Origin: a bacterium
GTDB taxonomy: Bacteria; UBA8248
Reading direction: 5' to 3'
Assembly: GCA_963692865.2 (NCBI GenBank)
Contig: OY843592.1
Span: forward strand, 3,072,001-3,136,000
DNA: 64,000 bases
Positions within the stretch are counted from its first letter, which is position 1. Every line of letters starts with the position of its first letter. The translations under genes and the position numbers were made by a program. The notes beneath the pieces are model-generated. The model was not told the origin of the DNA. It did no database searches and worked only from the letters and a program-made list of their open reading frames with translations. This document shows, in pieces, positions 9,745 to 21,313 of this stretch.

Positions 9745-10911
9745 CTAGTCGCGCCTGGCGCCAAATACGCCGGAAACGTCGTGAATATCTCCACCGATCC
9801 TGTCGTTTTCAGCAACAGACGTCCTGAAACTGAACAAGCCACCCACTTCCTCGTGGCTCGGACCGTAGAATCGGCCTGAGATGCCTCTCCTCGCGCGATG
9901 TCGACTGACATTTGATTCCACCTCACTGATAGGAACGACTCCGAACGATCCGTTATGGAGTTTCAGCCCTGCCCAAGTAACATCATTGAAATTCGCACCA
10001 GTTTGTTCGTCTTTCATATTACTGAATTCAACATCCACCAGCAGACCAGAATTTCCTAGCGGATTGAAAACCGTAATTGTGGCATCGCCTTTGACGAAAC
10101 TATCCGGCTCGGCAATACGGATGCCAACCATAATCCCGGACCAAGTCGCGGCGCCGCCGGCTAAAACATCCGGATTCGAATCGATTGCGTTTCCTATCGA
10201 ATAGGCGCCATAGTAATTTGCGGAAATCCGGTTTTCTTCAGACGCTATCTCGATCCCGGGTGTCTTGAGAAGGAAAAAACTATGGTCGATCCAGCCGGCC
10301 AGGGCGCGGTAGTTGGTCGCATCGCCTCCTCCTCCTGAAACCTGCGTCCTTTCCGCCAAAGACACGCCGCGGCGGCGTTCGATGAAACGAAAGCCGGAAA
10401 AGTCAAACTTGCCAACCGCCCTGTAGTGAACCGGTCCGAGCCCTCCCTCACATCCCAATAACAGCGCCGCACACGTTACGGCGTCAGGAGGAGGAGGATC
10501 AGCACCAAATCGAGCCAACGCGAGAGATTTCGAATTGCTCCTTAAGTCGCTCAAAACGCCTTCGATTTCATTCGTCTCGAGAATCAAGGACTTGAAGCCA
10601 GGCACCCCGCCGGCAACCTCATACTCGACCGCGCCGTCGTCGGCTACGATCACCACACACGCGGGGCCGCCTGCCGGACACGACACTTCGACGTTGCCAT
10701 GCTCCTCGGAGGTGCCCGGCCGGACCGTGAACTCCTCCATCGGGGCAAGACCGTGGTTCGCGGGCGCCCCGGACAGAGCTACTGTGGCTTCTTCGTCCAC
10801 GGGTGGCATGGGCATCGAATCGACCACCGACCCGCTGCCTCCACAACCAGCCAACATCACCAAGAGCGGCAAGGCTACAAGAAGCGAAAGCTGATTCTTC
10901 CTATTCAACAT
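9745..10911 (-). CDS. Surface lipoprotein with C-terminal TbpB-like beta-barrel
   Basis: Lipobox LAG-CGGSG; ATWSGIMVG, ISGRFYGPSHEEVGGLF and terminal GVFGARRD resemble TbpB/fHbp-type barrels. Confidence 0.7.
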   Translation of the reverse strand: MLNRKNQLSLLVALPLLVMLAGCGGSGSVVDSMPMPPVDEEATVALSGAPANHGLAPMEEFTVRPGTSEEHGNVEVSCPAGGPACVVIVADDGAVEYEVAGGVPGFKSLILETNEIEGVLSDLRSNSKSLALARFGADPPPPDAVTCAALLLGCEGGLGPVHYRAVGKFDFSGFRFIERRRGVSLAERTQVSGGGGDATNYRALAGWIDHSFFLLKTPGIEIASEENRISANYYGAYSIGNAIDSNPDVLAGGAATWSGIMVGIRIAEPDSFVKGDATITVFNPLGNSGLLVDVEFSNMKDEQTGANFNDVTWAGLKLHNGSFGVVPISEVESNVSRHRARRGISGRFYGPSHEEVGGLFSFRTSVAENDRIGGDIHDVSGVFGARRD

Positions 10912-11296: not shown

Positions 11297-12604
11297 CTAG
11301 GCGTCTTTCTTGTTCAGGAACGAATCCTTGAGGTATTCGACGGCGCGGTCGAGCTGGGCGTCCTTCTCTTCCTCCTCGGCCGCGCCCTGCGACTCGCCGG
11401 ACGGCGCGCCGCCCGGAGCGCCTTCTTTCTGCTCCCCCGCTTTCTCCGACTCGCCAGGCAGGTGGCCGGGCAGGTCCTTCTCGCGCATCGCGCTCGCGCG
11501 CCTCACCGCCTCGCTCACGATGTCGGGCTCGATCCCCTCGCCCTGGATGCGCCTTCCTTTGGGGGTGAAATAGAGCGCGGTGGTCAGCCGCAGTCCCGAG
11601 CCGTCCGAGAGCGGAACGACGGTCTGCACCGACCCCTTGCCGAACGTCTTGACGCCGACGAGCTTGGCGCGTCCCAAATCCTGGAGCGCGCCCGCCACGA
11701 TCTCCGACGCGCTCGCGCTGCCCGCGTTCACGAGCACCGCCATGGGAATCTTCCCGCCCGGCGTCTTGCCCGTCGAGGTGAAACGATGCTCCTGGTCGGT
11801 CATGCGGCCCTTGGTGTAGACGATCAAGCTGCCGGCCCCGAGGAAAATATCGGACACCGAAACGGCCTGGGAGAGAAGCCCGCCGGGGTTGTTGCGCAAA
11901 TCGAGAACGAGCGCTTTGGCGCCCTTGTCCTCGAGTGCGGACAGGGCGTCCCGCACCTCCTCGTCGGTTTCGTTCTGGAAGCTGCGAACCCGGATGTACG
12001 CGATGTCCTCGGGCAGCATGCGGCTCCTCACGCTCTTGATGCGGATGATCCGGCGCGTGATGGTGAAGGGGAGCAACTCCTTCTCCCCCTTGCGCCTCAC
12101 GGTGATCTTCACCTTCGTGCCGGGCTTGCCCCGAAGCTTCTTGACGACCTCCTGGAGCGGCATGTCTTTCGTGGGTTCTTTCTCGATGAAGATGATCTGA
12201 TCGCCCGCCTGCACGCCGGCCTTGTACGCCGGGGTATCCTCGATGGGCGTCACCACGGTAAGTACGTCGTCCCGGATCGATATCTCCACGCCCAGGCCCC
12301 CGAAGCGGCCCGTGGTCTCGACCTGCATCTCCCTGAAATACTCGGGGCTCAGATAGCTCGTGTGGGGGTCGAGCGTGCGGAGCATGCCCTGGATGGCGCC
12401 GCGAATCAGCTTCCTGGCCTCGACCTTGTTGACGTAGTTCTCCTCGACGAGGCTCAGCACCTCGCTGAACGCCCGCAGTTCGGAATACGCGCTCGTCTCG
12501 CTCGCGGAGAGATTCGCGACGGGGCCCGCCGCCATCCCCGCGACGAACAGCGCCAGAACGCCGGCCCAAATCATCCACCCGGACAAACGATATTTTTTCG
12601 ACAT
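11297..12604 (-). CDS. ctpA: Carboxy-terminal processing protease (S41, PDZ)
   Basis: LDPHT, FGGLG, DLRNNPGGLL, SASASEIVAGALQD, TFGKGSVQ. Confidence 0.95.
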   Translation of the reverse strand: MSKKYRLSGWMIWAGVLALFVAGMAAGPVANLSASETSAYSELRAFSEVLSLVEENYVNKVEARKLIRGAIQGMLRTLDPHTSYLSPEYFREMQVETTGRFGGLGVEISIRDDVLTVVTPIEDTPAYKAGVQAGDQIIFIEKEPTKDMPLQEVVKKLRGKPGTKVKITVRRKGEKELLPFTITRRIIRIKSVRSRMLPEDIAYIRVRSFQNETDEEVRDALSALEDKGAKALVLDLRNNPGGLLSQAVSVSDIFLGAGSLIVYTKGRMTDQEHRFTSTGKTPGGKIPMAVLVNAGSASASEIVAGALQDLGRAKLVGVKTFGKGSVQTVVPLSDGSGLRLTTALYFTPKGRRIQGEGIEPDIVSEAVRRASAMREKDLPGHLPGESEKAGEQKEGAPGGAPSGESQGAAEEEEKDAQLDRAVEYLKDSFLNKKDA

Positions 12605-12758
12605 CTCTCACTCCTCAGAGGATGCGGCCCAAAAGAGCGATTCTACTCCACGAGGCGCGATAACGCCACAAGAGAGCGCAGTTTCGGGTGCGGGAGAAGA
12701 ACATGGCGTCGTGTCCACCTCCGCATAATAGGGAGTCATTCTTCTCCGGTTGCGTCAT

Positions 12759-13010
12759 GGGGGGTTGTTGAAAAAACCTCGCCGCCTCGTTCTGAACAGC
12801 GGCGAAGCAGCGTATCGAAGGGGATGCCTTCTCGCCCCGGCGCGAGGCGTTCGACTTCCCAAGCCCTGCGATACAAACGCTCCCTCCCCGGTCGCGTATG
12901 ACCTTCGGAGGCTATTCAGGATGAGGAAAGAGGCGTCGTCCGTTTGCGGGGGTCGAACGCGACCGGGGAGGGAGTGTTCGCTGTCCTTGACGGGGCTTTT
13001 TCAACAACCC
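12759..13010. repeat. Nested repeat element with GGGGTTGTTGAAAAA...TTTTTCAACAACCCC termini
   Basis: Terminal inverted repeat of about 15 bp enclosing degenerate GTATCGAAGG and CTATTCAGGATGAGG units. Confidence 0.8.
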
Positions 13011-13035
13011 CATGTGCGCTCACTCGGAATTACCC

Positions 13036-13563
13036 TCATTCAGTGGAGCGGTCCTTCTCGGAAGAAGAGTCTTCCAGGACGGGAGCCAGCAGGTGATGGA
13101 TGATCTCGGCGACGAATTCGCCGCGCCCCCGCACGCCGGCCTTTGTGTAGAGGGTGCTGGCCTGCAGCCGGGTGGTGTTTTCCTTGACCTGGCGCAGTTC
13201 GGCGATTTCGGCAAAGCGGTAACCTTTGATGATCATCCATGCGATTTCTCTTTCACTGGGGGTCAGTTTCCACTCATCCATCTGTTCTTCGATGCCGGCG
13301 GCAAGCTCGCCTGCGAGCGCCTTGTTCCGGGTCTCCTCCCGTTGCAGGCGCGTTCGCAAGTCGGCGATATCCTTCAAACTGAGGATGAGGACCACCAACA
13401 CGGAAAGAAATACGAACGCTTCGACAATAAAATGCGTAGAGGCGAATTCTCCCTCCAAAGATGCGTCTGCGATCAGGTCATAAATCAGGAACAATGCGGC
13501 CGGAAAAAGTATGGCTACCCGGAAAGTTCTATTTGAACTTTGTTCTGGTAGTATTCTTCTCAC
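13036..13563 (-). CDS. Membrane-anchored LuxR-type HTH transcriptional regulator
   Basis: Two N-terminal TM helices, a coiled coil, then WKLTPSEREIAWMIIKG..EIAELRQVKENT HTH. GTG start at 13563 is inferred. Confidence 0.82.
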   Translation of the reverse strand: MRRILPEQSSNRTFRVAILFPAALFLIYDLIADASLEGEFASTHFIVEAFVFLSVLVVLILSLKDIADLRTRLQREETRNKALAGELAAGIEEQMDEWKLTPSEREIAWMIIKGYRFAEIAELRQVKENTTRLQASTLYTKAGVRGRGEFVAEIIHHLLAPVLEDSSSEKDRSTE

Positions 13564-13779
13564 ATCAGATCGTCCTATTTTCGGACTGTACAGGCACCAT
13601 TCTGCGTTGTGGCGGCAGGCAAGAATTATATCGATAGGATATCTTAATTTCACAGCCTTTGAAAATGGATTGATTTGTCGAATGCCGAACACACCCGATG
13701 CGCCTCTGTCTCAACCTGGGCGCATGCGCACGGCGAGTACGACTCAATGACAAAAAGGGATTGTCCCGGACGAGAGGGG

Positions 13780-14214
13780 TCAATTCCGACCAGTGCGGGA
13801 AGTCCTGTTTTTGCCTTTCATCCAAAGGGCAGCGCGCCGCAGCCTGCGGAACCAGGGGTACAGCATTCGCACGCGCCCTGGATTCGAAGAAAACCACTTC
13901 GCGAACCTGTTGAACCAGTCGCCTCCGCTCGTCATCGCCTCGAGCGCGGTCATGGCCGCAGCGCCCTGATAGTTCCGGCCGTCCAGGACGAGAATCATCC
14001 CCTCCTCGATGTCGCAGCCTTCCCGCCGCAACTCGGCGACGAGTTCGGGCGCCTGCCCGGCGTCGATGAGTTTCAAGGTTCGCCCGGTTTGCGTCTCGAA
14101 CCTCGATTTTCGCGCATAAAAGCTGCAAAACGGGCACTCGCCGTCATAGAGCAAAAAGGCGTCCCGTGAAGATAAATCGGCGGATTGAACGCGCCCGGCC
14201 TCTGGTGAAGTCAT
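13780..14214 (-). CDS. DCC1-like (DUF393) thiol-disulfide oxidoreductase
   Basis: N-terminal LLYDGECPFC (DxxCxxC), YQGAAA, and C-terminal LYP..R. Confidence 0.85.
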   Translation of the reverse strand: MTSPEAGRVQSADLSSRDAFLLYDGECPFCSFYARKSRFETQTGRTLKLIDAGQAPELVAELRREGCDIEEGMILVLDGRNYQGAAAMTALEAMTSGGDWFNRFAKWFSSNPGRVRMLYPWFRRLRRAALWMKGKNRTSRTGRN

Positions 14215-14411
14215 GCTTGCCCCTCCGGTTCCACGCCCATATTCTCCTCACATAAAACATACAGCCAAGAGATGATCCCCCCGCGTGAACTCCGCAACAG
14301 AGCGAAATCGGCGGCGTCCCTGAAGATAATGCCCGCATCAGCCTCACGGCTTCAGCGAGATCAAGGCAATCCGGATTGCTACCTGAACATTGTAAAGTTT
14401 CATGGTTGAAA

Positions 14412-15779
14412 TCATTTTCTCCTCCGCTTCCGGCGTCGCTCATGAAGAGGCACCTCCAAGGGCTTGATCCACGCCTTTGGCCAAATCGAGCGCGGCTCCT
14501 TCAAGAGGTTGACGTCGGGGTCCAGCAAGTGTTGTCGCCTCCGGCCGTTCAGGGACACCCTGGCGTCGACGCGGATCGAGGATACCTTTATTCCTTCCGC
14601 CCGCAACCGGTCGCCCAGATAGTAGACGAATTGATGAATCATGTCCGGTCTGCCGGCCATTTTCCTCGCCTGCCAGGATTTGATGTAGCGGGTGGGAGAT
14701 ACTTTATACTCGTTTCCCGACTCGTCCGCGACCAGAAACCGCACCCGCCCGGATTTGCTGCGAAGCTTCATGTGCCAGGCGTAGAGATGTCCCTCTTCGG
14801 TCCAATTCACATTTCCGGGATAGAGCCAGTGCCTCAGCGGCATCAACAGTTGCCAGCAGACATAGGCCGCGAGGAATGTAAATACGACCCGGGAACATCG
14901 ATTTGCGCCGGGAGGTTGCGCCGTCTGGTTTCTTTTCAGGATTACATATCGCCTGGGCCAGTCGGGAGGAAAAAACACCGTTGAGAGGGCGATGGCGAAC
15001 CAGGGGAATATACCGATGTGAAAGATGACGGCGTTGGTGAGGTTGAAAAACAGCACGCCTGCGAATGCCGCAACCCTCGTCCGCCTCCACATCAGGAGCG
15101 GCACGATGAGCAGGTCGAAGAACAGAGCGCCATAGTTCATGAGCATTACGACCGATTCCTGACCGAACAGGGGGCCGAGCAAGGGATAGTCCATGCGTTT
15201 ATGCAGCCAGCTTCTCAACGGCTCCCCGGCCAGCCAGTCGGCGTTGATCTTGGCGATGCCGCCGTAGAAATAGACGACGCCCATCTGGAAGCGCAGAATC
15301 CACAGACTCCACACGGGGACGGTATCCGTTCCCGCGCAGAGTCCGAACTTCGCATCCAGCGACACGGCCCGGTTCGCCGGGACCACTGTCATCAGAAAGC
15401 TTACCAGGCACACGAGATAAAAGTGATTCAGGTAGCGCGCCTGCTCGAGCAGGAAGACATAGCTGAAGGCGATGAAGAAAAGAGCGGCGGCGACGCGATA
15501 GAACAAGCCGAAGGTGATGAGCAGGGCCAGAAAACCCAGCCCCAGGAAATGCCAATACATTCCATCGCCGGGCCAGGGCGCGACCCAGTCGAACCCGAAG
15601 TAGCGGAAATGAAAATCCGGCGTGATCCAGTAGTTGCGTATCCAGCCCTTCTTGAAATAACGCGCGACTTCCCACAGCATGATCAGCCCGAAAAGTATAC
15701 GGACCATCACCAGCGAGGCAATATCGGTGGGCTCCGCAAGCCGCTCACGCCACTCCGTTACCACCTGCTTTGCGCTCAT
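14412..15779 (-). CDS. HTTM-domain vitamin K-dependent gamma-carboxylase (VKGC) homologue
   Basis: RILFG, YLNHFYL, YFYGGIAKINADWL, IGIFP, NWTEEGHLYAWHMKLRSK and SLNGR..DPDVNL cover both the HTTM and VKGC lumenal-domain motifs. RBS GAGGA before ATG 15779. Confidence 0.92.
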   Translation of the reverse strand: MSAKQVVTEWRERLAEPTDIASLVMVRILFGLIMLWEVARYFKKGWIRNYWITPDFHFRYFGFDWVAPWPGDGMYWHFLGLGFLALLITFGLFYRVAAALFFIAFSYVFLLEQARYLNHFYLVCLVSFLMTVVPANRAVSLDAKFGLCAGTDTVPVWSLWILRFQMGVVYFYGGIAKINADWLAGEPLRSWLHKRMDYPLLGPLFGQESVVMLMNYGALFFDLLIVPLLMWRRTRVAAFAGVLFFNLTNAVIFHIGIFPWFAIALSTVFFPPDWPRRYVILKRNQTAQPPGANRCSRVVFTFLAAYVCWQLLMPLRHWLYPGNVNWTEEGHLYAWHMKLRSKSGRVRFLVADESGNEYKVSPTRYIKSWQARKMAGRPDMIHQFVYYLGDRLRAEGIKVSSIRVDARVSLNGRRRQHLLDPDVNLLKEPRSIWPKAWIKPLEVPLHERRRKRRRK

Positions 15780-15973
15780 TTTGTTTTCCTCGAACAAGTT
15801 CCGAGGGTTCGCATCAGGCTTGCGCCATCTTTTCTATGCGCCAAGCGGAATCTTGCAAATGGAGGGCAGCGCCGCGGCAAGCGGCAACTCGCAAGAAAGA
15901 CTTGTCCGAAGCGATTGCAATTCAGCGAGGCGCATGGAATTTCCTGTTCGCTCTCCTTAAAGAGCAATCGAAT

Positions 15974-18754
15974 CTATGGCGTACGTTTGGCCCCGAACGC
16001 GCCGACGATGCTCTGGAGGCTGTCCACCGTGTTGGCTCCGAAAGTTCCCGCCACAGAACCGGGATGATCGGCGGGGTCGGCGCGGTTGCCCAAGAACTTA
16101 CCGCCCCACTTGCCCGTGAACGCGACGCCGTCGTCCGTCGTCTCGCTGGTGTCGCCGTCGAAGTTCCCCCCGAGGTCGCCGTCGGTGATGCCGGCGGAAC
16201 CCAGAGTCAACGCGGGCAGGGACACGCCCCCATCCGTCCTGCCCCCCGTAATCGACCCCGAGACGCTTCCCAGCGCAGCCGCGTCACCAAAATCGACCGC
16301 CAGATCCGCTCGCGCGTCGAAATAATCGAATACGGGGTTTGCGTCCGCATCCGCCTTCGTCATGTACAGACCGGTCGCGGGCCCGCTGTAGGTCGCCGCG
16401 CCCGTCAGGCCGGCCAGGTTGTCGTTTTCGAAGGGATCGTTGCCCCCTGCGGCGACGCCCAGTTCGTACGAGCCGGTGTAGTTTCCGTCGCCGGGGTCCT
16501 TGTAGATGAACAGCCACGAACCCAGCGAGAGGTAGTCTTGGTCCGTGTTCTCCTGGCTGTCGGTGTAGGCGTCCCAGTTAAAGATTCCATCAGAAACATC
16601 CTTGTGGGTCTCGACGCCCCTCCAGCCCGCCGCCGGGCTGTCCGTCATCCTCGATGACACGTCCTGATCCGTCGTGCTCAAAGTCGAGACGGTGGAGCCG
16701 GTTTCGCGTTTAAAGGTGAACTGCACGTCCCCGCTCGCATCGCGCTCCACGAGGAAATACGAAGGATCCAAGACGCGACCGCCGGGGGTGTGGGACGATT
16801 GCGTGGTGCTGCTCATTTCTCTCGACGTGGGCGTGTGCCCCAGAAGCCATGCTCCCCCGGCTCTCAGGATGTGATCCGCAGCGCCCCTCGCCAGCTTCGG
16901 GGTCTCGTTGATTTCCATGCTCGTCTCCGGCAACGCGGGCGTGGACGCGGACCCCACAGGCCGCGCTCCCCCGGCCGTCAGGATATGCACCGCGGCGCCT
17001 GCCGCCAGAACCGGGTTCTCATTCACTTCTTTCAGCAAAGACCCGTAGCGAGCTGATGGGGTTCGTTTGGCCCCGAACGCGCCGACGATGCTCTGGAGGC
17101 TGTCCACCGTGTTGGCCCCGAAGGTGCCCGCCACGGAACCGGGATGATCGGCGGAGTCGGCGCGGTTGCCGAAGAACTTACCGCCCCACTTGCCCGTGAA
17201 CGCGACGCCGTCGTCCGTCGTCCCGCTGGTGTCGCCGCCGAAGTTCCCCCCGAGAGCGCCGTCGGTGATGCCGGCGGAACCCAAGGTCAACGCGGGCAGG
17301 GACACGCCCCCATCCGTCCTGCCCCCCGTAATCGACCCCGAGACGCTTCCCAGCGCAGCCGCGTCACCAAAATCGACCGCCAGATCCGCTCGCGCGTCGA
17401 AATAATCGAATACGGGGTTTGCGTCCGCATCCGCCTTCGTCATGTACAGACCGGTCGCGGGCCCGCTGTAGGTCGCCGCGCCCGTCAGGCCGGCCAGGTT
17501 GTCGTTTTCGAAGGGATCGTTGCCCCCTGCGGCGACGCCCAGCTCGTACGAGCCGGTGAAGCTCCCGTCTTCGGGGTCCTTGTAGATGAACAGCCACGAA
17601 CCCAGCGAGAGGTAGTCCTCGTCCGCGTTGCCTTGGCTGTCGGTGTAGGCGTCCCAGTTGAAAATGCCGTCCGTCGCATCCTTGTGGGTCTCGATCCCTT
17701 TCCAGCCAGGCGCCAGATCATCCATCATTCTCGATGAAACGTCTTCATCCGTCGTGCTCAGGGTCGAAACGGTGGAGCCGGTTTCGCGTTTGAAGGTGAA
17801 CTGCACGTCCCCGCTCGCATCGCGCTCCGCGAGGAAATACGAGGGGTCCGAGACCCGCCCGCCGGGGGTGTGGGACGATTGCGTCGTGCTGCTCATCTCC
17901 GACACTCGACCGTCGATGAGGGAGGACGTAATGATGAGGAAGGAAGACGATTGCGTCGTGCTGCTCGTCTCCTGCAACGCGGACCCCAGAGGGCGCGCTC
18001 CCCCGGCTTTCTGGATGCGCTCCGCGGCGCCCCTCGCCAGCTTCTGGTCCGCCTTGACTTCCTTCAACAAAGACCCTTTGCGAACCGATGATGCCAAATT
18101 GCCGATTCTGCCATCATCATCGTCGTCGTCGCTGTCGTTATCGTTGTCATTGTCATTGTCGTCATCGCTGTCGTTGTCGTCGTTATCATTATCGTTGTCG
18201 TTATCGTTGTCGCCGGAGCCGGGAGGCGAGTTTCCAGGCTGATTCACGGGCGGCGAGGCGCCGTCATCATCGTCGTCGTCGCTGTCGTTATCGTTGTCAT
18301 TGTCATTGTCGTCATCGTTGTCGTTGTCGTCGTTATCATTATCGTTGTCGTTATCGTTGTCGCCGGAGCCGGGAGGCGGGTTCCCAGGCTGATTCACGGG
18401 CGGTGAGGCGCCGTCATCATCGTCGTCGTCGCTGTCGTTGTCATTGTCGTCATCGTTGTCGTTGTCGTCGTTATCATTATCGTTGTCGTTATCGTTGTCG
18501 CCGGAGCCGGGAGGCCGGTTTCCAGGCTGATTCACGGGCGGCGAGGCGCCGTCGTCATCGTCGTCGTCGTCGTCTGACTCCGACATTATCATCGTGCTGG
18601 ATGCGGCCTCGGCCCTGGGGGAAATGGCGTCCCCCACAATGGTTAAGAGCGCGGACACGGTTCCGCCCCCACCGTAACCCCAGACGATGAAAACAAGCGC
18701 GAACGAGATCGATATGGCGAAAAGCGAAAATTTAGAGAGGGGTTTTCTTGCCAT
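15974..18754 (-). CDS. Large exported acidic protein: three Asp/Asn repeat blocks and two tandem TbpB-like barrel modules
   Basis: Hydrophobic N-terminus, D/N tracts, and two near-identical modules (ATYSGPATGLY...WGGKF.GN...GSVAGTFGA...GAFGAKR). Confidence 0.8.
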   Translation of the reverse strand: MARKPLSKFSLFAISISFALVFIVWGYGGGGTVSALLTIVGDAISPRAEAASSTMIMSESDDDDDDDDGASPPVNQPGNRPPGSGDNDNDNDNDNDDNDNDDDNDNDSDDDDDDGASPPVNQPGNPPPGSGDNDNDNDNDNDDNDNDDDNDNDNDNDSDDDDDDGASPPVNQPGNSPPGSGDNDNDNDNDNDDNDSDDDNDNDNDNDSDDDDDDGRIGNLASSVRKGSLLKEVKADQKLARGAAERIQKAGGARPLGSALQETSSTTQSSSFLIITSSLIDGRVSEMSSTTQSSHTPGGRVSDPSYFLAERDASGDVQFTFKRETGSTVSTLSTTDEDVSSRMMDDLAPGWKGIETHKDATDGIFNWDAYTDSQGNADEDYLSLGSWLFIYKDPEDGSFTGSYELGVAAGGNDPFENDNLAGLTGAATYSGPATGLYMTKADADANPVFDYFDARADLAVDFGDAAALGSVSGSITGGRTDGGVSLPALTLGSAGITDGALGGNFGGDTSGTTDDGVAFTGKWGGKFFGNRADSADHPGSVAGTFGANTVDSLQSIVGAFGAKRTPSARYGSLLKEVNENPVLAAGAAVHILTAGGARPVGSASTPALPETSMEINETPKLARGAADHILRAGGAWLLGHTPTSREMSSTTQSSHTPGGRVLDPSYFLVERDASGDVQFTFKRETGSTVSTLSTTDQDVSSRMTDSPAAGWRGVETHKDVSDGIFNWDAYTDSQENTDQDYLSLGSWLFIYKDPGDGNYTGSYELGVAAGGNDPFENDNLAGLTGAATYSGPATGLYMTKADADANPVFDYFDARADLAVDFGDAAALGSVSGSITGGRTDGGVSLPALTLGSAGITDGDLGGNFDGDTSETTDDGVAFTGKWGGKFLGNRADPADHPGSVAGTFGANTVDSLQSIVGAFGAKRTP
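15984..17896. repeat. Intragenic direct duplication, period 1080 bp
   Basis: About 15984-16816 matches 17064-17896; for example lines 16261-16440 and 17341-17520 are identical. Confidence 0.95.
18112..18572 (-). repeat. Tandem coding repeats (DDDDDGASPPVNQPGNxPPGSG-[DN]n) x3
   Basis: Three copies of GGCGCCTC(G/A)CCGCCCGTGAATCAGCCTGG (minus strand) separated by GAC/GAT/AAC/AAT microsatellite-like tracts of unequal length. Confidence 0.95.
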
Positions 18755-19094
18755 CGGTTATTCTCCTTTCCGATATTCATCAAACTCGTCGTCGGCATGG
18801 GAGACGCCGCCCAACGTCAATGAAAGGGCGTGGCGCAACCCGGCGCAACAGGGAATGCTTATTGGACAGTCTAGCGACTGAGAGGCGACGTCCTCCATAT
18901 ATTGTTGGTTATATATTTCCCGAATCCATACCAACGCTATATATGAGAGGCCCGATTTTGCGGAAAGTGATGCCCGGCGCTGGCGAATGCGCCGAATCGA
19001 AGAAGGCGCCGCATTCTTGCAGCGCCCGGAATGTCAAAAACTGAACCGGAGCGGCCCGCGCCCGTTCCGGCCGATGGGAATTTCTGTAAATATC

Positions 19095-19144
19095 GATAAA
19101 TTCAGGGGGTTTTTTGATAAATTGACGACGTATTTCGATAAATT
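19095..19144. promoter_or_regulatory. Phased GATAAATT x3 array (21-bp period), probable protein-binding site
   Basis: GATAAATT at 19095, 19116 and 19137; an inverted 27/28 copy of the core lies at 41131-41158. Confidence 0.5.
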
Positions 19145-19276
19145 TCCTGCTCCCGGCGGAGGCGCAACTCCCCCGCCGCCGGAAACATGGTGAGAATACA
19201 CGAGCCTGCGGGCGCGATCATCACGGCAAATGCGCGCATCTGCGGGCAAATGCGCGCGTCGTTTCACGGGGAACGT

Positions 19277-21313
19277 TCAGAGGATGTCTTTCGTCCGCTC
19301 GGCGATGCGCTCCGGCGTGAGGCCGAAATGCGCATAAATTTCCTTGTAAGGCGCGCTGGCGCCGAAGCGATCGATTCCGAGCACGGCGCCGTCCTCCCCC
19401 ACCCATTCGCGCCAGCCCATGGTGGCGCCCGCCTCAACCGCCACCCTCGCCTTCACTCCCGCCGGAAGAACGGAATCGCGATAGGCGGGAGATTGCTCCC
19501 GAAAAAGCTCCCAACTCGGCATGCTCACGACCCGGGCGTCTATTCCATCCATCGCCAACATACTTTGCGCCTCCACCGTGAGATGCACCTCCGAGCCGGT
19601 GGCGACCAACACGGCCCGGGGAGAACTCCCCTTTTCCGGTGAGATGACGTAGGCCCCCCGCGCCAGCGCATCCGCTCCGTTTTCCGCCGAACGCTCCAGG
19701 ACGGGCAGGCCCTGCCGGGTCAACACGAGCATGGTCGGGCCTTCGAGGCGCTCGACCGCCACCCGCCAGGCCGTGGCGGCTTCATTCGCGTCGCATGGGC
19801 GTATGACGACGATGCCCGGCATGGCGCGAAGAGAGGCGAGGTGCTCGATCGGCTGGTGGGTGGGACCATCCTCGCCCAAGCCGATGGAGTCGTGCGTCAT
19901 CACGTAGATGACGGGCAATTCCATCAGCGCCGCGAGTCTTATGGCCGGCCGGGCGTAATCGGTGAACGTGAAGAAGGTGGCCGCATACGGGCGAACTCCA
20001 CCATGCAGGGCCATCCCCGAGCAGGCTGCTCCCATGGCGTGTTCTCGGATTCCCCAGTGGATGTTGCGGTTGGCGTAATCTCCTCTGGCGAAATTTCCCG
20101 ATTCTTTGATGAGCGAATTGTTGGAAGCCGCCAAGTCCGCGCTCCCGCCGACAAGCCAAGGAATGGCGGAGGCGATTTCATTCAGCACCTGGCCGGACGC
20201 CGCCCGCGTGGCCAGCGCCCCACCCCCGGCCTCGAAGCGGGGAATGCGGCTCTCCCAACCGGCAGGCGGTTCACCTTTAAGCGCCGCCTGAAATTTTGCG
20301 GCCAACCCCGGGTTCTCCGATTCAAATTCCGCGAACCGGCGATTCCAGTCCGCCTCCAGCGCGGCGCCTCGAGGAACCGCTTCCCCCATGTGGGCGGACA
20401 CTCCATCGGGCACCAGGAACGTCTCGCCCTCGGGCCAGCCGTAGTTCCTTTTCGTGGCTTCGACTTCTTCACTCCCCAGGGGAGCGCCATGCGCCCGCGC
20501 GGTATCCTGATATTTCGGCGAGCCATACCCGATGTGCGATCGAACGACGATCAAGGACGAGCGCTCGACCTGCGCCTTCGCCAGATTGAGCGCACCGGAA
20601 ATCCGGGATAAATCCTCCGCGCTGTCGCCGAGATTCTGCACGTGCCAGCCGTACCCCTCAAAGCGCTTCACCACGTCATCGGAATAACTGAGCGACGTTT
20701 CGCCATCGATGGTGATGCGGTTGTCGTCATATACGCATATCAACTTGCCAAGACCCAGATGCCCCGCCAAGGATGCCGCTTCATGGGAAGCGCCCTCCAT
20801 GACATCGCCGTCGCTCATGAACACGTACGTATGGTGATCCACAATCGAATGGCCTGGACGATTGAAAACGCTCGCCAAATGCGCCTCCGCCATCGCCATT
20901 CCGACCGCGTTCATGAAGCCTTGCCCGAGCGGGCCCGTGGTGGTCTCGACACCCGGCGTAAGCCTGTATTCGGGATGCCCCGGCGTCTTGCTCCCCCACT
21001 GACGAAAGCGGACGATCTCAGGGAGCGAAAGTTCATAACCGCTCAGATGGAGAATCGCATAAAGAAGCATTGAAGCATGACCACACGAGAGCACGAAGCG
21101 GTCGCGGTCAAACCAGCCGGGATTTCGGGGATTGTAGCGCAGATGGTTCGTCCACAACTCATACGCCAGCGGCGCAAGAGCCATCGGCGTGCCCGGATGG
21201 CCACTGTTCGCCTCTTGCACGGCATCCATCGAAAGCGTGCGTATGGTGTGAATCGATTGCTCGGAGATGCTGGTGCCGGAGAACATTTCTTTCTCTTTCG
21301 AAAATTTCGTCAT
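19277..21313 (-). CDS. tkt: Transketolase
   Basis: [51 protein letters not shown]. Confidence 0.97.

Follow-up and report, generated by a model that had tools for sequence, protein, structure and literature searches.

Four minus-strand genes lie side by side within a 64,000-nucleotide stretch of a bacterial genome (contig OY843592.1; the whole stretch is hereafter the window). They encode a membrane enzyme of the vitamin K-dependent carboxylase (VKGC) family, a predicted exported acidic protein, a DCC1-like protein and a LuxR-like regulator (Table 1). Their positions and strand had been given in an original prediction made from the letters alone, and all four open reading frames (ORFs) were recovered as described, separated by intergenic gaps of 87, 197 and 176 bp. 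Judged by their sequences, they make up a predicted four-gene envelope module centred on a bacterial vitamin K-dependent carboxylase whose catalytic residues are intact. The enzyme gene gives the single HTTM match in the 4.15-Mb source genome and adjoins the single Asp/Asn tract of that genome.

Table 1. Features of the carboxylase locus and of related loci; positions without a locus label are those of the window
Feature	Position	Strand	Basis or remark
218-aa membrane LuxR/GerE-like regulator	13036..13692	-	two hydrophobic helices and a C-terminal helix-turn-helix
144-aa DCC1-like DxxCxxC protein	13780..14214	-	Pfam PF04134, 1.9e-9
461-aa VKGC-type enzyme	14412..15797	-	HTTM and VKGC_lumenal_dom in Pfam
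926-aa predicted exported acidic protein, candidate substrate	15974..18754	-	N-terminal hydrophobic segment, three poly-Asp/Asn repeats, two TbpB-like lobes
Poly-Asp/Asn tract, aa 58-215	18110..18583	-	TRF and composition count
First TbpB-like lobe (handle and barrel), aa 231-575	17030..18064	-	structure model, Foldseek
Second TbpB-like lobe, aa 576-926	15977..17029	-	tandem duplicate of first lobe
388-aa TbpB-like lipoprotein (LAGCGGSG)	9745-10911	-	C-terminus sub-threshold to TbpB_B_D / Slam-lipoprotein; 5 kb from module
60-aa Cys-rich exported peptide, CC-x-x-CC repeats, ends in eight Asp	L082 9486-9668	-	489 nt from Planctomycetota VKGC, opposite strand
290-aa lipoprotein and 407-aa membrane protein with NSNDDDDDDNDNDD-type repeats	L206 2369-3241 and 3951-5174 (G058:C1:4513500-4519500)		

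The HTTM domain of the enzyme matches PF05090 over its full length (2.4e-89, profile positions 2-259 of 259) and is followed by a fused VKGC lumenal domain (PF22777; 6.6e-44, profile positions 3-150 of 152). Human GGCX chains align to the protein at E ~3e-45. The motifs that had been quoted for it are all present and align to their human counterparts: YGGIAKINADW (K183) to K218, NHFYL (N124, H125) to N159/H160 and W341-H-M343 to W399/M401. Its description as a complete enzyme also holds, since both domains are full length and eight of the ten human active-site residues are kept: N124, H125, K183, W188, D228, F251, F264 and M343 are identical to human N159, H160, K218, W223, D263, F286, F299 and M401. 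The other two are replaced, Tyr395 by His337 and Arg436 by Lys379. The accessible text of PMC12647623 names Lys218 as the catalytic base of GGCX and Trp223 and Asp263 as its partners, has Phe286 and Met401 sandwich the quinone, places the CO2 site at Phe299, and lets Asn159/His160 hold the substrate carboxylate; its discussion already reports conservation of the catalytic residues across bacteria. We found the eight kept residues invariant in 155 of 155 aligned bacterial orthologues, and the invariance of the N159, H160 and F299 equivalents points to a carboxylate-bearing substrate. The equivalent of human residues 374-418 is retained as well (query 288-457 aligns to human 348-515). Full-length VKGC orthologues that keep the catalytic residues are common in bacteria (one search gave 4556 proteins with E up to 0.001), and to our knowledge no protein substrate has been established for the bacterial orthologues. 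Six proteins with longer forms of the enzyme were found; the three of these that were read carry neither a poly-Asp tract nor a DCC1 fusion.

The gene directly upstream of the enzyme encodes the acidic protein. Its 158-residue tract contains 69 Asp, 36 Asn and one Glu, in agreement with the earlier claim that it is essentially Glu-free, and is the sole 30-aa window with at least 60% Asp plus Asn in a six-frame scan of the genome. TRF resolves it into 3.1 copies of a 150-nt period with 93% matches (18110-18569), which correspond to three 50-aa units, each an Asp/Asn run followed by a GASPPVNQPGNxPPGSG spacer. The protein has one N-terminal hydrophobic segment (aa 5-30), which fits predicted export or membrane anchoring.

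The remainder of the acidic protein consists of two lobes that are 81% identical (tblastn); the second lobe enters the alignment of relatives, A4, at 91% identity over its last 296 aa. A lobe model built from this alignment (15 relatives) reached a pLDDT of 78.5 and a pTM of 0.80, and replaced a single-sequence model (pLDDT 34.9) that was set aside. Foldseek matched the model to HpuA, TbpB, fHbp and hemophilin at E ~2e-5 and TM-scores of 0.45-0.55. The TbpB_B_D profile scores the lobe at E 3.9e-4 (21.4 bits, below the cut-off of 26), and seven of the 15 family members match it at E up to 0.01. A search of the barrel-family profile against PDB sequences gave nothing meaningful, the best match being a viral capsid protein at E 0.41. 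By the model, the Foldseek matches and the TbpB_B_D matches in relatives, the acidic protein is TbpB-like and has two lobes. The source genome holds one Slam (SlipAM) gene (G000:C1:1253133-1254002), and the 388-aa lipoprotein encoded near the module belongs to the TbpB-like lipoprotein family of the genus.

A lack of conserved linkage in related genomes had been named as a result that would overturn the original prediction, and this test comes out in its favour: within the genus the four genes are present or absent together. VKGC was found in four of 23 genomes, the LuxR-like gene in exactly the same four, and an acidic TbpB-like gene directly upstream of VKGC in all four. DCC1 genes occur in two copies in each of these four genomes and in one copy in most other congeners, and the module carries a second DCC1 paralogue of its own. 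The only other VKGC match in the 51 genomes of the phylum that were searched is partial and belongs to another genus. Genes for an S41 protease, a transketolase and a tetratricopeptide repeat (TPR) protein flank the module in the window and in the congener locus L006, and were not found in the 20-kb congener loci L007 and L008.

The VKGC-linked copies of the TbpB-like protein differ from their relatives at the anchor. In all four genomes WGYGGGG replaces LAGCGGGG and poly-Asp/Asn stands where a Gly-rich linker would be, and the lipobox Cys is lost, the N-terminal 60 residues of the protein in the window, L006, L007 and L008 containing no Cys at all. Eight loci of VKGC-less congeners (at most 50% identical) were examined, and each holds a barrel ORF with a Cys lipobox (G-C-G), followed in seven of the eight by a Gly-rich stretch; the linkers are rich in Gly, Pro and Met. 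None of these eight ORFs has a poly-Asp tract, and their content of Asp plus Asn is 10-13%. The acidic gene of congener G010 (contig C15, loci L008/L009) is read as two overlapping ORFs (11874-12764 and 11488-12090 in L008) with a single lobe and a short Asp tract; the split is a frameshift or an assembly error.

An earlier suggestion was that VKGC homologues be surveyed for adjacent acidic exported proteins. More than 500 VKGC loci were available in each of two collections, genome contigs and metagenome contigs; we surveyed 80 loci from species-representative genomes and 78 from metagenomes, 40-83% identical to the enzyme. Removal of a congener (L009) and a duplicate (L139) left 156 loci, 133 of which have flanks of 2 kb or more. 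Open frames in a six-frame reading, rather than predicted genes, were the basis for calling hits, and 880 kb of near flank (within 4 kb of VKGC) was compared with 874 kb of far flank. The association is recurrent: windows with at least 10 Asp in 15 aa lie near VKGC at 12 of 156 loci and nowhere in the far flanks (binomial p = 2.5e-4), ten of the 12 on the VKGC strand. When open frames of 60 aa or more are screened for runs of at least six Asp, 15 loci score near and one far (at 4.3 kb; p = 2.7e-4); runs of at least five give 20 near and two far. The corresponding near/far counts are 1/0, 1/0, 1/0 and 0/0 for runs of Glu, Lys, Asn and Gln. Near VKGC there is also an excess of poly-Ser, poly-Thr and poly-Arg windows (28/4, 6/0 and 38/23), which probably reflects in part the same GAY repeats read in other frames and hits inside the enzyme gene. 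As a second background we searched five VKGC-bearing genomes (36.5 Mb) with a D6 DNA pattern, a D7 pattern being too strict (it missed three congeners); the D6 pattern occurs at 16 places, one of which is 0.76 kb from VKGC.

The two poly-Asp criteria combined mark 19 loci, 17 of which were read (L018 and L054 are not included). Hits occur in genomes labelled Cyanobacteriota, Chloroflexota, Bacteroidota, Acidobacteriota, Actinomycetota, Myxococcota, Verrucomicrobiota, Planctomycetota and Tectimicrobiota, and the second collection provided a partial replication with four new poly-Asp loci in 77. At least 8-9 changes of the poly-Asp label are required on a FastTree phylogeny of the 155 enzymes, and the label is therefore not confined to one clade. 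The Chloroflexota genome G058 has a VKGC without an adjoining tract, and two neighbouring envelope proteins with long Asp/Asn repeats of the NSNDDDDDDNDNDD type are encoded 1.6 Mb away (Table 1), which makes substrates in trans conceivable. DUF4440/SnoaL-like proteins are the commonest VKGC neighbours in loci L052-L088 (6 of 129 ORFs).

All 17 poly-Asp hits that were read lie in ORFs, and the 16 ORFs with an N-terminus present, read by eye, all show a signal peptide, a lipobox or a transmembrane helix. Pfam domains were found in nine of the 14 partner ORFs scanned and nothing in the other five. The domains include DUF5666, PKD with a type IX secretion system (T9SS) tail, SLH, PepSY_like, Kazal repeats and a pilin-type N-terminus. 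These folds are unrelated, which leaves the poly-Asp tract, together with an export signal, as the common feature of the partners. The tract is the extreme C-terminus in L015, L056, L062 and L078, where the gene ends 26-110 nt upstream of the enzyme, and in L082; it lies near the N-terminus in L017, L023, L052, L132 and the window. In L017 the VKGC homologue has as its partner a giant T9SS protein's N-terminal head, which carries the poly-Asp tracts. PepSY_like recurs in three partner proteins (L037 8682-9896 and 11584-12243; L145 3792-5051), and a PepSY_TM-like membrane protein (L010 7097-7762) lies between a poly-Asp lipoprotein and two-component genes upstream of VKGC. A sorting-signal role of C-terminal poly-Asp, by analogy with sortase, was considered and set aside, since many of the tracts lie within the protein or towards its N-terminus and the carboxylase site of the enzyme is complete.

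The 144-aa DCC1-like protein matches PF04134 with 39.2 bits (cut-off 27.8), carries the motif D-G-E-C-P-F-C and has no hydrophobic or transmembrane segment. In P0057, a 53% identical orthologue of the enzyme, a DCC1-like domain is fused to the N-terminus of the HTTM and lumenal domains, and a functional link between DCC1 and VKGC is plausible. HTTM-DCC1 fusions are also described in the accessible part of the preprint 10.64898/2026.08.19.745780. The idea that DCC1 genes would adjoin VKGC homologues elsewhere was not borne out in the 79 other genome loci. DCC1 is absent from the 131 neighbour ORFs of genome loci L010-L051, and it is not among the families common to at least two of the 129 neighbour ORFs of L052-L088, where 25 of 170 families were listed and a single match is possible. 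A tblastn search of the window's DCC1-like, LuxR-like and acidic proteins against the 80 genome and 78 metagenome loci matched the congener alone. As to quinone supply, a check for menaquinone biosynthesis, proposed earlier, found futalosine-type genes, with two MqnA/MqnD-type matches in the genome; no VKOR was found in the source genome.

The 218-aa LuxR-like protein has hydrophobic segments at aa 56-79 and 82-113. Its matches are weak: GerE (PF00196) at E 0.0025 and 17.9 bits (cut-off 23.5), and the NCBIfam model LIC13292_fam at 4.8e-15 and 56 bits, far below the cut-off of 200. The co-orientation of the four genes, one of the first observations made on the locus, holds in the source genome and fails in all three module-bearing congeners, in which the LuxR-like gene lies on the opposite strand, convergent with DCC1 (L006 12489-13022, L007 8508-9032, L008 8690-9280); the four genes are thus not one conserved operon. 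The gene is inverted in the source genome, and the DCC1 end and S41 start that flank it still align with the congeners. An inverted-repeat search found no inverted repeats flanking the gene, and hence no evidence for a switch. Between the S41 and LuxR-like genes there are nested inverted repeats, with 28-nt arms at 12876-12903/12951-12978 and 21-nt arms at 12761-12781/12991-13011. The inner palindrome is an indel between strains, since 12882-12985 (102 nt) is skipped in the DNA contigs of a related strain.

A single metatranscriptomic library of a related strain yielded contigs over portions of the acidic gene, of DCC1 and of the enzyme gene, the last at its 5' end. One of these contigs (438 nt, 15738-16174) bridges the gap between the acidic and VKGC genes. 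Such contigs show neither strand nor a single transcript and may contain DNA, so that the bridging contig is a weak hint of co-transcription. In another contig 16688 is joined to 17769, with 1080 nt skipped, so that the acidic gene has one lobe; the assembly may have collapsed the two similar lobes, or the one-lobe allele may be real, as in G010. A scan of 12600-19300 returned four promoter-like sites (1.8 +/- 1.4 in shuffles) and 15 terminator-like sites (7.0 +/- 3.0), with no clear site of either kind within the intergenic gaps. Across the window, G+C measured in 2-kb steps ranges between 0.47 and 0.70 and is low in a block at ~22-38 kb.

Taken together, the results support the original interpretation in part. 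From these observations we infer a substrate relationship, a chemistry and roles for the DCC1-like protein and the regulator. At the outer face of the inner membrane, the enzyme would draw on menaquinol and O2 to make a strong base; with CO2 or bicarbonate it would then modify the poly-Asp tract of its upstream neighbour, the exported protein. The likeliest chemistry would be the conversion of Asp side chains to malonate-type residues, analogous to gamma-carboxyglutamate (Gla). Once modified, the tract, which stands in place of the Gly-rich anchor linker in a bilobed, TbpB-like surface protein, would be able to bind more metal. The extra DCC1-like CxxC paralogue, in the cytoplasm, may re-reduce the oxidised quinone or epoxide in this VKOR-less genome, and the membrane LuxR-like protein may regulate the module. 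Modification of the neighbour's poly-Asp tract by the enzyme, with Asp carboxylation as the likeliest reaction, is a reading we hold tentatively and place just short of probable. We favour Asp as the target because the substrate-carboxylate and CO2 sites are invariant, because the Streptomyces enzyme MloH acts on an aspartyl unit, and because poly-Asp is the sole feature common to the partners. Extended to the family, the proposal would make bacterial VKGC orthologues poly-Asp protein carboxylases that use menaquinol, O2 and CO2 to form beta-carboxyaspartate tracts on exported proteins, lipoproteins and small peptides in at least nine phylum-level groups. Poly-Asp would be both the recognised and the modified element of this widespread and so far undescribed modification, with substrates adjoining in about one-tenth of genomes and encoded elsewhere in the others; in this general form we find it rather doubtful, though worth entertaining.

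Several observations weigh against carboxylation of the neighbouring tract. Known protein carboxylation is on Glu, which is nearly missing from the tract. The position of human Tyr395 is His in the enzyme and in 149 of 155 orthologues, so the substrate-carboxylate triad Asn159/His160/Tyr395 is incomplete. According to the accessible text of PMC12647623, this Tyr binds the Glu carboxylate and stacks on the preceding hydrophobic residue; poly-Asp offers no hydrophobic neighbour of that kind. The enzyme also stops near human residue 515, and the last ~240 residues of GGCX (~516-758) are missing. The DCC1-like protein has no export signal, while the active site of GGCX faces the other side of the membrane, so any quinone recycling would have to take place at the cytoplasmic face; moreover, DCC1 and LuxR are linked to VKGC in the source genus alone and not beyond it. 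In the survey, a poly-Asp gene adjoins VKGC at only ~8-12% of loci (12 to 19 of 156), and no poly-Asp neighbour occurs in one clade of 35 rows, made up of Pyrinomonadaceae, other Acidobacteriota and metagenome rows. The label is more clustered on the enzyme tree than in shuffles (0 of 500 as low), with two small clades wholly positive, and the loci are consequently not fully independent. Poly-Asp tails are not restricted to VKGC-bearing genomes: in G057, of the same family and with no VKGC found, one protein has a D14 tail (L107) and another a Lys-flanked D7 run (L104). These two are coiled-coil repeat proteins with the Asp run at or near the C-terminus (L104 and L107; G057:C245, ~34269 and ~46443). 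Finally, the RNA-library contigs leave 14392-15287 of VKGC and 13048-13495 of LuxR uncovered, which we do not read as silence.

The poly-Asp proteins could instead be partners that are not substrates, concentrating Ca2+, another metal or bicarbonate at the membrane face, or carrying the tract as a docking tag while the enzyme acts on other residues or on a different molecule, for instance a lipid or a small metabolite. Adjacency is real and says nothing of which molecule is modified, and a tract that is C-terminal in some partners and N-terminal in others suits a tag as well as a target. As far as the accessible accounts go, MloH acts on a small-molecule intermediate rather than a protein, and giant-virus relatives are proposed to drive lipid desaturation (PMC13486548). 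The invariant N159/H160 carboxylate site and F299 CO2 site nevertheless point to a substrate that bears a carboxylate, and the 264 neighbour ORFs reveal no other gene with a recurrent link to the enzyme; we consider this explanation unlikely, though it deserves to be taken seriously. It is a little less likely still, in our view, that the enzyme stands alone in the envelope for quinone chemistry or for an unlinked substrate and that the poly-Asp genes are merely co-located. Such an enzyme would suit the ~88-92% of loci that are without an adjoining poly-Asp gene and the diversity of the neighbours (170 Pfam families in 129 neighbour ORFs), and a Leptospira orthologue reportedly epoxidises vitamin K without carboxylating, which also weighs against Asp carboxylation here. 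Chance co-location fits poorly with 12 of 12 strict hits within 4 kb against none in equal far flanks, with ten of these co-directional and several gaps as short as 26-110 nt. The unrelated folds of the partners argue against one conserved envelope operon, and within the genus the poly-Asp form of the TbpB-like protein exists only where VKGC does.

We regard it as very improbable that the association is a statistical or annotation artefact, produced by non-coding repeats or by kinship among the sampled loci. The use of open frames, the unread D6 hits of L018 and L054 and the two all-poly-Asp clades leave some room for this. Against it stand the location of the 17 hits in ORFs, the export signals of all 16 with an N-terminus and the Pfam domains in nine of 14; kinship is countered by hits under nine phylum labels, by the at least eight changes that the label needs on the tree and by the four new loci in the second collection.

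A recurrent, cross-phylum, exported poly-Asp neighbour is a candidate protein substrate for the bacterial VKGC family that can be tested directly. If the tract is indeed carboxylated, this would be a new protein modification of bacterial envelopes, a bacterial counterpart of Gla, and would provide a simple peptide substrate for studying and engineering O2-driven, CO2-fixing chemistry. Beta-carboxyaspartate was reported in bacteria long ago, and such a modification would explain those reports. The literature search, for which most subscription journals were outside reach, returned no paper linking a bacterial VKGC/HTTM enzyme to poly-Asp proteins, and in the accessible parts of that literature the only characterised bacterial VKGC case acts on a small molecule.

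Compared with human GGCX, the enzyme belongs to the same HTTM plus lumenal-domain fold family (E 3e-45) and shares the catalytic Lys and the Trp and Asp that partner it, the Phe and Met on either side of the quinone, the Phe that stacks on CO2 and the Asn-His pair that holds the substrate carboxylate; the candidate substrate, like those of GGCX, would be exported, acidic and probably metal-binding. It differs in length (461 versus 758 aa), in the replacement of Tyr395 by His and Arg436 by Lys, and in its candidate target, a poly-Asp stretch nearly devoid of Glu and lacking a hydrophobic residue ahead of the acid. Enzyme and candidate substrate are here encoded side by side, in a genome without VKOR. 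No Gla domain or propeptide was found in the genome, in a search whose control was also silent and which is therefore uninformative. MloH, from malonomycin biosynthesis in Streptomyces, is a bacterial VKGC orthologue with an aspartyl unit as its carboxylation target (Law et al. 2018, as cited), so the family can act on Asp. In the accessible descriptions, MloH acts on a polyketide synthase-non-ribosomal peptide synthetase (PKS-NRPS) intermediate within a biosynthetic cluster, in what is termed an alpha-carboxylation. The present locus has no PKS/NRPS genes, and the partner is a ribosomal exported protein.

Other HTTM systems offer a further comparison, and the features of SdpAB are general background. 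Like the HTTM-DCC1 fusion/DUF5819 and the SdpA/SdpB or linaridin systems, as set out in the accessible part of 10.64898/2026.08.19.745780, the module couples an HTTM enzyme to a DCC1-like CxxC domain and an exported neighbour. In those systems, to the extent that the preprint text describes them, a separate DUF5819 or SdpA protein replaces the VKGC lumenal domain and the candidate substrate is a small peptide; here the lumenal domain is fused, DCC1 is separate, and a large folded protein bearing poly-Asp is the candidate substrate. The giant-virus gamma-carboxylase-like epoxidase-desaturase with VKOR, as far as the accessible text of PMC13486548 goes, is likewise derived from VKGC, keeps K218 and is linked to a thiol-based quinone recycler. 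The viral forms are without residues 374-418 and are judged there to be epoxidase-only, whereas in the enzyme described here that region is present, as are the CO2 and carboxylate sites, and its recycler would be DCC1, not VKOR. The acidic protein itself shares handle-plus-barrel lobes with TbpB, HpuA, fHbp and hemophilin, the Slam-dependent lipoproteins, its paralogues in the genus are lipoproteins with Gly-rich anchor linkers, and the source genome has one Slam gene; the VKGC-linked copies in the four genomes differ from all of these in exchanging the lipobox Cys and the Gly-rich linker for a sequence without Cys and a tract of poly-Asp/Asn.

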